30,599 nucleotides of DNA from assembly GCA_029250565.1 (NCBI GenBank), contig JAQXFA010000136.1, positions 1 to 30,599 on the forward strand, given 5' to 3'. Below the pieces are notes generated by a model, which worked only from the letters and a program-made list of their open reading frames with translations, was not told the origin of the DNA and did no database searches. Made by a program: the position numbers and the translations under genes. Source of the stretch: Candidatus Thalassarchaeaceae archaeon. Its GTDB lineage: Archaea; Thermoplasmatota; Poseidoniia; Poseidoniales; Thalassarchaeaceae. This document shows, piece after piece, positions 9,261 through 13,508 of the stretch (position 1 is the first letter of the stretch; each line of letters opens with the position of its first letter).

Positions 9261-10985
9261 TCAGAGTAAGGTATTTTCAATGGGCGCTTCATCAAGATGG
9301 AAAAACGAGTAAACAGCCCACCAAGTAATGAAATCAAGGCTATTTACGAGGTTAGTTACGCCGGTATTTTCTTCCCCGTAGTCCTTACCTGTTGTATCCA
9401 TCCAAGCCTCCATTTCTTCTAGAGTATCACATACTTGGTGATAGCACCAATACCCATCAACAAGTCCCCCAAAACCAATCGTCACAGTTCCTAGATTATC
9501 TTGGAAGGAAGCGTGGTCAGAACGTGCTGTTGTATCTTCATAGATGATAATTTCCGGTCTATCTGAAGCCATCCATGAATTATATTTCCAAGTTGCTTCT
9601 TCAAAACCTTCACCAGTTAGGGTGCCAATCTGTTGCTCAACACCCAACGCATCAGAGCCAATCCATTCTTGCAATCCAACGAGTTCTTTTTGGCTGAGAT
9701 TTTGATAAGAGTCAGTAGGCCCAATATAGACTCGCATTGGCCAAACTTCCTCATCTTTAGGATAGCCATCCTCATCAGGGGTTGGTTCAGGGTCACCATG
9801 TGGTGCACCTCCACCTCCTGGCCAATTTACACCAGCCATATCCAAATTGATGTAATTGGTTACAGTTACTTCGGGGTGGTCTTCTTTGACATAGAAATCA
9901 GTCCAATAATCACTTCCTCGCTTGCCCCCTTCTTCACCAGACCAAAGGCAGAAAACCATTGATCGTCGCGAATCAAAATTTGACATCATTTTTGCAGTCT
10001 CTAACACCATACTTGTTCCCGCAGTGTTATCATAAGCACCAACTCTCGTACCGTATGTTCTGCTTCCAGTGATATGTGGGTCAAGTAGTGGTATAGCGCT
10101 GTTTGCTGGTGGAGCAATGTCAAAATGAGCACCAAATACTAACCACTCGTTTGGCACTTCTTTACCCCAACGATAACCACATACATTCAGTGCCTCAGGG
10201 TTTTGTTTACTGAATATATCAGTGAATTCAAAACGATGTTTAATGACCTCTAACCCAAAAGATTCCAATTCAGCGACTAAATAGTTTGCAGCATCTTCGT
10301 ATGCAGGGTTTCCTTGTCCCGCCCAACGGTCCCAGTAACCCATTCTACGGTCAATATCTGTTGTATCAGGTGTTGGATCTGTGATTTCATACAAGCGGTC
10401 GTAAACAGTTCGGCCATTCATTATTCCAGTAGCAAAATCACCACCCGCATCAGGCCCAAAACCAGGTGCAGAAGGGCGAATCACTGTAAACGTTTGAAAA
10501 GCGACCTTACCACCATTTTCAGTTGAGTAATTAATTGAATCAAATGAACTATTTTCCCCAACAACGCGAGCAATACCACCATGTGAAGGTGGGTTAGCAC
10601 CACCATCCCCAACCCATGTGCTCCATGAGGTGTTTGATTCTCTTGTTGGCCAATCTACTCGCCCTAGTTCACCTATCATAAATAATGCAATTTCAGCCCG
10701 CGGCGGTGCTAGGATTGAAACTTCAACAGAACTACCTTTTTTGATATCAATTATCGTAGAGTTTTGTACATAACCACTATCTGGGTTCATAATCAAATAC
10801 GGGATGTATACAGATAAGTCATTACTAGCTGAGAATTTTACATTTTGAAATATCCCGCCGATCAATGTTTGAACACCAACATCCAAGTCCTCAGCAACTG
10901 GCACCCCTTCATCATTTGATCCCAAACAACCAGCAAACATTGAGGTTGTAAAGAGCAAGGTGAGTAGCACCGCCTTGACTCGCAT
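9261..10985 (-). CDS. M28-family zinc aminopeptidase, predicted secreted lipoprotein
   Basis: GAHFD, GAYDNTAG, GEEGG, NLDM, YHQVCD metal-ligand motifs. Start at ATG 10985 gives MRVKAVLLTLLFTTSMFAGC, a signal peptide with lipobox-like FAGC. TTCAA at -30..-26. Confidence 0.85.
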   Translation of the reverse strand: MRVKAVLLTLLFTTSMFAGCLGSNDEGVPVAEDLDVGVQTLIGGIFQNVKFSASNDLSVYIPYLIMNPDSGYVQNSTIIDIKKGSSVEVSILAPPRAEIALFMIGELGRVDWPTRESNTSWSTWVGDGGANPPSHGGIARVVGENSSFDSINYSTENGGKVAFQTFTVIRPSAPGFGPDAGGDFATGIMNGRTVYDRLYEITDPTPDTTDIDRRMGYWDRWAGQGNPAYEDAANYLVAELESFGLEVIKHRFEFTDIFSKQNPEALNVCGYRWGKEVPNEWLVFGAHFDIAPPANSAIPLLDPHITGSRTYGTRVGAYDNTAGTSMVLETAKMMSNFDSRRSMVFCLWSGEEGGKRGSDYWTDFYVKEDHPEVTVTNYINLDMAGVNWPGGGGAPHGDPEPTPDEDGYPKDEEVWPMRVYIGPTDSYQNLSQKELVGLQEWIGSDALGVEQQIGTLTGEGFEEATWKYNSWMASDRPEIIIYEDTTARSDHASFQDNLGTVTIGFGGLVDGYWCYHQVCDTLEEMEAWMDTTGKDYGEENTGVTNLVNSLDFITWWAVYSFFHLDEAPIENTLL

Positions 10986-11041
10986 CAACAATGCGAACAT
11001 CAATTCCCTGTTGAACCCAACGATTGGTGGAGCGCGCGTTT

Positions 11042-11842
11042 TCACCTGAAGAAAAGCCGTAAACAAGTGAGCGAACCATCAGCACAACGAATATGCTCCA
11101 TATCAACACATGTTACACTGAATCCATGCTGAGACAGTAATTCTGCAGTTTTTGGGTAACCATCTGAGATGATTACACACCCATTTTCAAACCCAATTAT
11201 GTTTGCCGCATATGATTCTTCATTCGGCACCCAAATAATTTCTGCATCAATCCCATCAAACTGTTCTGGTTGTAAGTGCCCCTCTGCAGTAACTAAAACC
11301 CCAGGGGCGGGTGAAGAGCAGATAGTCGAAAGATGAAGTGTGCTTGGGGGGATGTCAAAAACAAAAGTTTTGAATCCCCTATCATGGCAGACATTTTCAA
11401 TAAATTCTACACCTTCAGTATTTGTTCTAGTTGAACGCCCAATTAGAAAACAATCATCATAAAAAACAACATCCCCACCATCTAATTTCGCATTTTCAGG
11501 CATGAAAATAGTTTCCAAATGTTGAGAAAGAGCTTCTGCAATACTTTCAGCCTCCCCTCTACGACTTGGGTGACCAAGATTACAGATTACAGCCGCACCA
11601 CCCACAATAACAGCAGCATCTTCAACAAAACAACAATCAGGATGATTTTCTAAACCAGGGAGGATAGTAACTTCCAAACCATTTTCTTCTAAAGCCTCTA
11701 CATATTTGTTATGGGCTTGAATAGAAGCCTCAACATCTGTTGGCCCTGTTCCGAAATAATTTGCTAAAGCCTTGGTAAAATTTGGAGATATTTGACGAAC
11801 CAGCCCGCCCGACCGATAGCGTCTATCCCAATCTCCCATCAT
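11042..11842 (-). CDS. Amidinotransferase-superfamily hydrolase, dimethylargininase (DDAH)-like
   Basis: CFVEDAA, LDGGDV, GRSTRTN, LHLST (catalytic His), DGSLTC (catalytic Cys). Start placed at ATG 11842/11839; the track's extension overlaps the upstream gene. Confidence 0.82.
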   Translation of the reverse strand: MMGDWDRRYRSGGLVRQISPNFTKALANYFGTGPTDVEASIQAHNKYVEALEENGLEVTILPGLENHPDCCFVEDAAVIVGGAAVICNLGHPSRRGEAESIAEALSQHLETIFMPENAKLDGGDVVFYDDCFLIGRSTRTNTEGVEFIENVCHDRGFKTFVFDIPPSTLHLSTICSSPAPGVLVTAEGHLQPEQFDGIDAEIIWVPNEESYAANIIGFENGCVIISDGYPKTAELLSQHGFSVTCVDMEHIRCADGSLTCLRLFFR

Positions 11843-11937
11843 TTTCTCGGCCACCTTGCAGACCATAAGTGTTCGGAATCCGGAAACATCCCACCAACAA
11901 ACGGAAACCATTAGCCCAAGTGAAATAAAAAGCAAAA

Positions 11938-12900
11938 TTATTTTTCCAAACCTTCCAAAAGGAACCACATAATCAATGGTAAAACAATAGTCGCATCAGA
12001 TTCAATCACATATTTCGGCGTATCAACCCCCAACTTTTCCCAACTTATTTTTTCATTTGGCGGTGCGCCAGAATATCCACCATAAGAGGGATTTGATTCA
12101 GAAATTTGAGCGAACCAACTCCACAAATCCACATCTTCTCCAAGATCTTGGCGTAACATCGGTACTACACAAATAGGGAAATCACCAGCAACCCCTCCAC
12201 CAACTTGCAAAATACCTAGTGGTGATTCTTGTTCTTGATACCATGAGGAAATATCACCCATCCGTTGCAAGTCGCTTGTGATGATACTATCGCTTGAAAT
12301 AGTTCCATCAATTAATCGAGCTGAGAAAATATTCCCTAATGTACTATCAGCCCAAGCTGGAGTAAAAATAGGAATTTGCATTTCCTGGGCTGCAACTAAC
12401 CAACTATCTTCGGGTCTGGCTTGAAATTCAATATCTTCTGAATTAATGACATCAAACAAATAATGATGAGGGGGTTTAGTTTCCTTATTTTTTTCCGCTT
12501 CTAACCATTTTTGTAAAAGAACGCTTTCTACTACACGAATAGCCTCTGTTTCTGGAATACAAGTGTCAGTAACTCGGTTCAATCCCTTTTCTTGTAATTT
12601 AGCATCATCTTCAGCGGTGAGGTTCCGCCAATCTATTTTTTCATACGAACTATGAGCAACTAGATTGAACAAGTCTTCTTCTAAATTTGCGCCAGTACAT
12701 GAGATAGCGTGGACTAAACCAGCACGGATTGCAGGCGCTAAAGAGCGCCCGATTTCAGCCGTTGACATAGCACCAGCTAAAGTTACAATCAACTTCCCGC
12801 CGTGGGTAAGAAACCCCTCAAGTGAACGAGCACAATCAGCCAACGCCCCCGCGTTGAAATGATGATAATTATGGTCAATGAATTGACGTACACCAGACAC
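11938..12900 (-). CDS. Deoxyhypusine synthase-like protein, short bacterial-type clade
   Basis: HFNA, TLAGAMSTAE, SCTGANLEED, NRVTDTCIPE, GGGVAGDFPIC, YSGAPPNEKISWEK (catalytic Lys position kept), IESDATIV. GTG 12900 is preceded by AAGGAGTGA, which contains the upstream stop codon. Confidence 0.88.
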   Translation of the reverse strand: MSGVRQFIDHNYHHFNAGALADCARSLEGFLTHGGKLIVTLAGAMSTAEIGRSLAPAIRAGLVHAISCTGANLEEDLFNLVAHSSYEKIDWRNLTAEDDAKLQEKGLNRVTDTCIPETEAIRVVESVLLQKWLEAEKNKETKPPHHYLFDVINSEDIEFQARPEDSWLVAAQEMQIPIFTPAWADSTLGNIFSARLIDGTISSDSIITSDLQRMGDISSWYQEQESPLGILQVGGGVAGDFPICVVPMLRQDLGEDVDLWSWFAQISESNPSYGGYSGAPPNEKISWEKLGVDTPKYVIESDATIVLPLIMWFLLEGLEK

Positions 12901-12904
12901 AAAA

Positions 12905-13333
12905 TCACTCCTTATTTTGTGATATATCATCGTGAAGAAATCGCTCAACTACGTTACGATTCATTAATTTCAACTTTTCACATTTAGCAATTAGTTTAGC
13001 ATGGATAATATCAGCCAAATCATTAGGGTCATGTGCTCCACAAGTGAAAGCATCAATCGCCAACCAACCCTTTTCAGAGTAACAGTGAGCAGTAACATGG
13101 CTCTCATCAATTAGAACAATTGCAGCAAACCCAGGGGGACTTTCAACCCCATCAAATACTTCACAATGCGCGTGTACTTCTTTGACTCCACACTCTTTCA
13201 CACTTGAGCGTAGTAGTGATAATACCCAAGCATCAATATTTTCAACTTCTGGATTAAAATTGACATAGTCAAGATAGACATGACGGCCATGGGCGAATCG
13301 TGCATCCAAGCCATCAGTCAGGTTGTTCACCAC
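12905..13333 (-). CDS. speD: Pyruvoyl-dependent decarboxylase proenzyme, AdoMetDC (SpeD/SpeH) family; substrate uncertain
   Basis: HGRHVYLD, GFAAIVLIDESHVTAHCYSE (ESH autocleavage site), IDAFTCG. 142 aa. Confidence 0.82.
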   Translation of the reverse strand: MVNNLTDGLDARFAHGRHVYLDYVNFNPEVENIDAWVLSLLRSSVKECGVKEVHAHCEVFDGVESPPGFAAIVLIDESHVTAHCYSEKGWLAIDAFTCGAHDPNDLADIIHAKLIAKCEKLKLMNRNVVERFLHDDISQNKE

Positions 13334-13424: not shown

Positions 13425-13508
13425 TGCAGAGGGCAGGATTTGAACCTGCGAACCACTGAGGACTAGGACCTCATCCTAGCGCCGTTGACCAAGCTTGGCA
13501 ACCCCTGC
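13425..13508 (-). tRNA. tRNA-Leu, anticodon GAG, no encoded CCA, no intron
   Basis: Minus strand: acceptor GCAGGGG/CCTCTGC plus discriminator A; D arm GCC...GGC with G15 and GG; anticodon stem CTAGG/CCTAG, loop ATGAGGT; long variable region; T arm GCAGG-TTCAAAT-CCTGC. Confidence 0.96.

Follow-up and report, generated by a model that had tools for sequence, protein, structure and literature searches.

A speDA-speY gene pair relocated beside an unrelated DDAH-like gene in a Thalassarchaeaceae archaeon

Introduction

Three co-oriented genes stand side by side in the genome of a Candidatus Thalassarchaeaceae archaeon, and the question raised by this locus is whether they encode the steps of a single polyamine pathway. 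The window examined in this study, a stretch of DNA of 30,599 nt, carries a gene for a SpeD-like decarboxylase, a gene for a paralogue of deoxyhypusine synthase (DHS) and a gene for a DDAH-like Cys-His hydrolase. The original prediction was that the trio could form an undescribed archaeal polyamine module, analogous to the cyanobacterial SpeA/SpeY/SpeB route, in which the DDAH-like protein takes the place of the arginase-fold SpeB.

Two published studies bear directly on this proposal. Clusters of the type speB-speDA-speY were described in Poseidoniales/marine group II (MGII) archaea by Li et al. 2023 (JBC 299:105005, PMC10407285), and two SpeD homologues from this group, "clustered with speB and speY", were assayed. 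Neither gave spermidine rescue in E. coli lacking speD, and the purified enzymes, named SpeDA, decarboxylated L-arginine only and had no AdoMetDC activity. In bacteria, diverse SpeY proteins were found to join two agmatines to give N1,N9-bis(guanidino)homospermidine (G44G), a compound turned into homospermidine either by SpeB-type ureohydrolases or by AIH-type iminohydrolases together with an amidohydrolase (Li et al. 2026, JBC 302:113510, PMC13625781). The latter study also asked whether two kinds of DHS protein, one agmatine-dependent and the other spermidine-dependent, are both present in archaea.

Results

Layout of the locus

From ORF listing, sequence reading and ARAGORN, the minus strand carries, in 5' to 3' order, a tRNA-Leu(GAG) (13508..13425), the SpeD-like ORF (13333..12905), the DHS-like ORF (12900..11938), the DDAH-like ORF (11842..11042) and a gene for an M28-family peptidase with a hydrophobic N-terminus (11066..9261; PF04389, 76.5 bits). 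The SpeD-like and DHS-like proteins, of 142 and 320 aa, both begin at GTG, while the DDAH-like gene most likely starts at ATG 11842, giving a protein of about 266 aa with similarity to the DDAH of P. aeruginosa. A fold could be assigned to each of the three with Pfam and NCBIfam, and all keep their catalytic motifs (ES/H/C in the SpeD-like, SWxK in the DHS-like and Cys/His/Asp in the DDAH-like protein). The first two genes are coupled: AAGGAGTGA includes the TGA stop of the SpeD-like gene (12907..12905), TTTT comes next, and the GTG of the DHS-like gene follows at 12900, leaving 4 nt between stop and start.

The third gene is set apart from the other two. A gap of 95 nt (11843..11937, minus strand) separates the DHS-like stop (11938) from ATG 11842; it opens with TAATTTTGCTTTTTATTT, and its oligo-T tracts lie directly after the stop. 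This gap probably marks the end of the transcript of the first two genes, the T tracts acting as a putative terminator, and the same-genus loci L004 to L010 keep a gap of about 80–100 nt at the same place. In its description of the locus, including the common orientation, the coupling of the first two genes, the T-rich gap of about 95 nt, the intact motifs and the lack of a spermidine synthase gene in the window, the original prediction was correct.

The SpeD-like gene and the source of agmatine

The SpeD-like protein has the AdoMetDC class 1b fold (PF02675, AdoMet_dc, 60.1 bits, the cut-off being 25). Its ESH...H...FTCG motifs align to S63, H68 and C83 of the T. maritima enzyme, so that the self-processing serine and the catalytic histidine and cysteine, whose roles were described previously (PMC10407285), are kept. 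The marks of a bona fide AdoMetDC were lacking: the score for the AdoMetDC equivalog TIGR03330 was 73 bits, just below the cut-off of 75.65, and no spermidine synthase partner could be found. The gene speE (PF01564) was detected neither in the window nor in the rest of its genome (1.2 Mb in 160 contigs, 53% complete), and it was not found in 58 of the 59 genomes of the order that are at least 90% complete. In the window's genome, at its 53% completeness, the SpeD-like gene was also the sole AdoMet_dc gene detected.

Other sources of agmatine are scarce. Among five good genomes of the order that were searched, pyruvoyl PdaD was absent from four and present in one, and none had a detectable PLP-dependent Orn/Arg decarboxylase (ADC/ODC) or a PF04371 agmatine deiminase, which leaves the SpeD-like enzyme as the only visible agmatine source in most of the five. 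The context is that of SpeDA, namely a speD gene without speE, clustered with speY and speB, and with no other ADC/ODC found (in four of the five good genomes searched, the fifth carrying pdaD). The window's protein is therefore best read as a pyruvoyl-dependent L-arginine decarboxylase rather than an AdoMetDC, in line with a possibility already raised in the original prediction and now supported by the lack of speE, the gene context and the ADC-only activity of the published homologues (PMC10407285). It would be an orthologue of the assayed proteins DAC51064 and AIF02979, judging by taxon, gene context and an identity of 45–60% to other Poseidoniales copies.

A cluster look-up for SpeDA gave further accessions from this family, DAC45126.1 among them. 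Public records still label the Poseidoniales speDA genes as 'adenosylmethionine decarboxylase', and relatives appear under the names Thalassarchaeaceae, Thermoplasmatota and "Euryarchaeota archaeon", in agreement with the taxon of the window.

A non-canonical DHS paralogue

The DHS-like protein (PF01916, DS, 141 bits) is a non-canonical paralogue. A second DS-family gene is present in the same genome, on contig C55, and that copy scores 309 bits and has the canonical motifs GGGISKHH and EAISWGKIR. In the window's copy the corresponding stretches read GGGVAGDF and EKISWEKLG, the catalytic lysine of SWxK being kept (SWEK) and GGGxSKHH replaced. Scores against the NCBIfam DHS and SpeY equivalogs were all far under their cut-offs (NF002699, bacterial SpeY, 83 against 500; NF001980, homospermidine biosynthesis protein, 138 against 450; TIGR00321, 100 against 304), and indeed none of the three proteins of the locus attains any NCBIfam equivalog cut-off. 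The features expected of a SpeY are nonetheless in place: a DHS fold with the catalytic lysine, encoded alongside a separate canonical DHS, and a conserved linkage with genes for an ADC and a guanidino-group hydrolase.

Paralogues of this kind are widespread. When 201 genomes from the order were queried with the DHS-like protein, 200 gave a match, most of them two (canonical DHS and paralogue) and a few only a weak one at the level of the canonical enzyme. When 1.84 billion cluster representatives were searched exhaustively and without a profile, 179 relatives emerged at E below 1e-30. Full-length relatives, at 37–51% identity, share the motifs GANLEED, NRVTDTCIP, PGWEDST, GGG(I/V)AGDF and (S/T)WxK, and wherever the context of distant members could be read, they adjoin arginase-family or Orn/Arg-decarboxylase genes. 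The upstream gene in one of the loci (L085) is not SpeD-like. None of ten representatives of the clade attains any NCBIfam DHS or SpeY cut-off, and this scoring did not discriminate. By context the clade behaves like SpeY, and by sequence it forms a distinct branch.

Conservation of the pair and its link to speB

In every locus that was checked, comprising 31 first loci and a further 20 drawn from 20 genera of two families, together covering about 22 genera, the DHS-like gene has the SpeD-like gene directly upstream of it. In five sampled genomes, from four genera, the pair is a single ORF, and the fusion proteins of 438 and 469 aa carry AdoMet_dc followed by DS (Pfam). A 45%-identical speDA::speY fusion, with an arginase-family gene alongside, was also found in a distant lineage (GCA_036148435.1). 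A 686-aa open frame in another genome (G054) was considered as a SpeB-SpeDA-SpeY triple fusion and rejected, since the ORF listing gives three separate genes.

In family f3, and in genera g2, g3, g10 and g11 of family f1, an arginase-fold speB stands immediately upstream of the pair, in the order speB-speDA-speY. Of the 59 genomes with a completeness of 90% or more, 58 carry an arginase-family gene. The conserved third partner of speDA-speY is thus the arginase-fold speB and not the DDAH-like gene. The window's genome has a speB of its own, on contig C9 (PF00491, 166 bits), and the idea of a Cys-His hydrolase acting in place of an arginase-fold SpeB is not supported. Of the polyamine genes that the original prediction had named for a search of the rest of the genome, speE was not found there, but both speB (C9) and a canonical DHS (C55) were.

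Translocation in the window's genus

The flanking genes account for the present position of the pair. The window reads c24-c31-c10-c9-M28-DDAH-[speY-speDA]-tRNA-Leu-DegT-c22-Hexapep-c15-c30, and the same block minus the bracketed pair occurs in genera g2, g3 and g10 as well as in one species (G153) of the window's own genus, g1. At four pair-less loci (L058, L059, L060 and L078) the tRNA-Leu(GAG) is directly upstream of the DDAH-like gene. The reciprocal change is seen at the speB locus, which in genus g1 reads c6-DUF6015-speB-M14 and in other genera c6-DUF6015-speB-speDA-speY-M14-M17. Since the pair is gone from the speB site in genus g1 and is inserted at the tRNA-Leu/DDAH site, it has moved within this genus: the two genes were relocated from beside speB to a position between tRNA-Leu(GAG) and the genes for the DDAH-like protein and the M28 peptidase.

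The DDAH-like gene and the M28 peptidase

The DDAH-like protein matches PF19420 (DDAH_eukar) at 37 bits, PF02274 being its only other Pfam match, and has no match to PF04371 (PAD_porph), the family of agmatine/diagmatine iminohydrolases (AIH/DIH). The DDAH of P. aeruginosa (3rhy) matches it over its full length with E 5e-32, while NCBIfam scores were under the equivalog cut-offs (NF045658, 139 bits against 450; NF045660, 136 against 340). Counterparts of D73, D79, R98, D127, R145, H173 and C274 of human DDAH1 are conserved in all 20 of the Poseidoniales copies sampled. The protein thus has the residues of a DDAH: with its pentein fold go a triad of Cys, His and an acid and the set of residues contacting the amino-acid part of the substrate, and these are unchanged in genus g1. 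In the human enzyme, Asp73 binds the alpha-amino group, Asp79 forms the guanidine clamp, Arg145 binds the alpha-carboxylate, and Asp127, His173 and Cys274 make up the triad (PMC10958460). Conservation of the amino-acid-binding residues suggests that the substrate is a free amino acid of the arginine type rather than agmatine or G44G, which have no carboxylate. Going by these binding residues, the most likely role of the protein is to hydrolyse some free derivative of arginine, for example methylarginine from proteolysis.

The distribution of the gene leads in the same direction. Of the 201 genomes, 177 have it, and it adjoins the pair only in genus g1; elsewhere it lies 10–600 kb away or on another contig. 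What it is usually found with is the peptidase gene: by ORF clustering over 40 loci, 15 of the 18 loci that come from other genera have an M28 peptidase adjacent to the DDAH-like gene or close by. These loci span both large families, and the two genes point the same way in family f1 and diverge in f3. In genus g4, speY occurs without a DDAH-like match in nine of the 13 genomes, and conversely two genomes of more than 90% completeness (G011 and G045) carry the DDAH-like gene and give no SpeY-like match. A DDAH-like ORF of 640 aa at one locus (L070) is probably an extension artefact, given that a long ORF on the other strand overlaps it. The distributions of the DDAH-like gene and speY across genomes are independent, and the DDAH-like gene is an unrelated neighbour that stands outside the polyamine module. 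The original prediction had placed it in one unit with the pair and had itself named a lack of conserved linkage as counting against this; outside one genus the linkage is absent.

Discussion

The two coupled genes of the window are, in all likelihood, the speDA-speY pair for homospermidine synthesis already known from Poseidoniales, with the true hydrolase gene, speB, elsewhere in the genome and the DDAH-like gene brought alongside by a rearrangement. Gene identities, synteny, distribution among genomes, conserved residues and the translocation were all shown by the analysis, and because the pair occurs in the gene context published for Poseidoniales it can be counted as a member of that system. 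It resembles the published Poseidoniales/MGII clusters in taxon, in the tightly coupled order of speDA and speY, in the lack of speE and in the presence of speB in the genome, and differs from them in that its speB is unlinked (C9) and the pair lies beside tRNA-Leu, the DDAH-like gene and the M28 gene after a translocation at the level of the genus. The module is therefore not undescribed, as had been thought, since the pair was previously reported together with speB in the same archaea (PMC10407285). The supposed parallel with the cyanobacterial SpeA/SpeY/SpeB route holds as far as an agmatine-based path to homospermidine is concerned, and fails where the DDAH-like protein was given the part of SpeB.

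By analogy with the characterized enzymes, the pathway would run as follows. SpeDA, a self-processing pyruvoyl enzyme derived from AdoMetDC, would convert L-arginine to agmatine; the SpeY-like protein, using NAD and its active-site lysine, would join two agmatines to give G44G; and the SpeB homologue encoded on C9 would strip off two urea groups, leaving homospermidine. The last would probably be the sole triamine of the speE-less Poseidoniales, and it would probably also supply the aminobutyl group to their separate canonical DHS. For the SpeY-like, SpeB and DDAH-like proteins of this genome, these roles are predictions from sequence. The arrangement is like that of bacterial SpeY and its DUH ureohydrolase, in which a DHS homologue is accompanied by an ADC and a hydrolase of the arginase fold; the lysine conserved in the window's protein is compatible with that chemistry, and the partner ADC in bacteria can likewise be a SpeD-derived SpeDA, as in Capsulimonas corticalis (PMC13625781). 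Unlike bacterial SpeY, the window's protein belongs to a separate clade with motifs of its own (GGG(I/V)AGDF, GANLEED and PGWEDST). It shares the PF01916 fold and catalytic-lysine motif with canonical archaeal and eukaryotic deoxyhypusine synthase, but lacks the KHH motif, and the genome has a separate canonical copy. As the clade falls under the NCBIfam SpeY cut-offs, its product could differ from G44G. That it makes something else, such as aminobutyl-agmatine or another triamine, or that the DDAH-like protein of genus g1 has been recruited to a guanidino intermediate, is unlikely.

Three further explanations were weighed against the known speDA-speY pair with a separate speB. The DHS-like paralogue might modify aIF5A with agmatine, SpeB then trimming the guanidino group on the protein, so that no free polyamine arises; this would follow the Haloferax model, reportedly put forward by Prunetti et al. 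in 2016, of a DHS that acts on aIF5A with agmatine and a SpeB that trims the guanidino group. The retained lysine is compatible with such a scheme, and so is the company of genes of the ADC and agmatinase types, but nearly all the genomes searched also carry a fully canonical DHS, the paralogue has diverged at just those motifs that canonical DHS conserves, and the distant members of its clade sit beside arginase or ADC genes in the manner of bacterial SpeY clusters, all of which makes the scheme distinctly improbable. Public annotations imply something plainer, an ordinary AdoMetDC together with a spermidine-using DHS or homospermidine synthase. The near-threshold TIGR03330 score and the conservation of all processing residues are what one would expect of an AdoMetDC. 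Yet spermidine synthase was missing from all but one of the 59 good genomes, the assayed Poseidoniales homologues gave no spermidine rescue and used arginine only (PMC10407285), and an agmatinase-family gene is near-universal and clustered with the pair, although four of the five genomes searched gave no other ADC; the annotated reading is very unlikely.

The proposal that the SpeD-like, DHS-like and DDAH-like proteins serve one pathway, the last replacing an arginase-fold SpeB, is now very hard to credit. It drew on the co-orientation of the genes and their adjacency in those same-genus genomes that have the pair at this locus, and it has a precedent of sorts in the pentein-fold agmatine iminohydrolase homologues that act on G44G in certain SpeY pathways of bacteria (PMC13625781). 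The adjacency is, however, confined to a single genus, where it arose by translocation, and a speB homologue is retained both in the window's genome and in its genus. The occurrence of speY and of the DDAH-like gene is uncoupled in genus g4 and in the two nearly complete genomes mentioned above. The DDAH-like protein keeps, unchanged in the window's genus, the residues that bind alpha-amino and alpha-carboxylate groups; it has no match to PF04371, a family not found in the five genomes searched; a deiminase product would need a carbamoyl amidohydrolase in addition; and the oligo-T gap intervenes between speY and the DDAH-like gene. It is closer to the DDAH of P. aeruginosa and human DDAH1, which it resembles in its triad, in the clamp residues for the guanidine, alpha-amino and alpha-carboxylate groups and, along its full length, in sequence, and from which it differs in scoring under the NCBIfam equivalog cut-offs and in being kept beside an M28 peptidase in Poseidoniales.

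Conclusions

The three-gene proposal was a tempting but wrong inference of an operon, which is corrected here; the real module, speB-speDA-speY, had already been published for the order. Nearly all the Poseidoniales searched have two genes of the DHS family, one canonical and the other a SpeY-like paralogue, and speE is all but absent from them, an observation that bears on the question of two kinds of DHS in archaea (PMC13625781). Judged by this gene content, one of the most abundant archaeal groups of the ocean probably has homospermidine as its triamine.

Several Poseidoniales genera carry natural fusions of the putative SpeD-fold arginine decarboxylase SpeDA to the DHS-like SpeY, in which a single ORF of 435–469 aa encodes an AdoMet_dc domain followed by a DS domain. 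Such AdoMet_dc + DS fusions occur on the plus strand at L034:5548-6957, L035:3645-5018, L046:5623-6930 and L090:4001-5362, and on the minus strand at L036:5998-7314 and L037:5998-7326 (L numbers denote loci fetched for comparison). In GCA_036148435.1, the fusion protein is 45% identical and an arginase gene adjoins it. SpeDA::SpeY fusions are not mentioned in the Michael-lab papers PMC10407285 and PMC13625781. Self-processing of a fusion would leave an alpha chain that begins with the pyruvoyl group and is still joined to SpeY. The 756-aa protein P0145 (L089:97-2367, plus strand) combines AdoMet_dc, an NNMT/PNMT/TEMT-type methyltransferase and DS, and is 51% identical to the SpeY-like protein of the window. 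Since its ORF alone occupies a 2.5-kb JGI contig, that contig may be a eukaryotic transcript.

The speB region of the window's own genome lies at L076:838-5589 (contig C9). Across the order, the genes flanking speB encode a DUF6015 protein (PF19479; 304 bits in L036) and a protein of ~1000 aa (cluster c6) with no Pfam match, and M14 and M17 peptidases lie downstream of the polyamine genes. The same genome encodes a canonical DHS (L001:1411-2427, plus strand, contig C55), the aminobutyl donor of which is presumably homospermidine, because 58 of 59 good Poseidoniales genomes yielded no speE.

In the window, a DDAH-like gene is paired with the gene of an M28 peptidase whose N-terminus is hydrophobic (9261-11842, minus strand). 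A tRNA-Leu(GAG), here at 13425-13508 (minus strand), often lies upstream of these two genes in the window's family. The pairing is kept in both large families of the order, which suggests that peptide degradation is linked with methylarginine or arginine catabolism.
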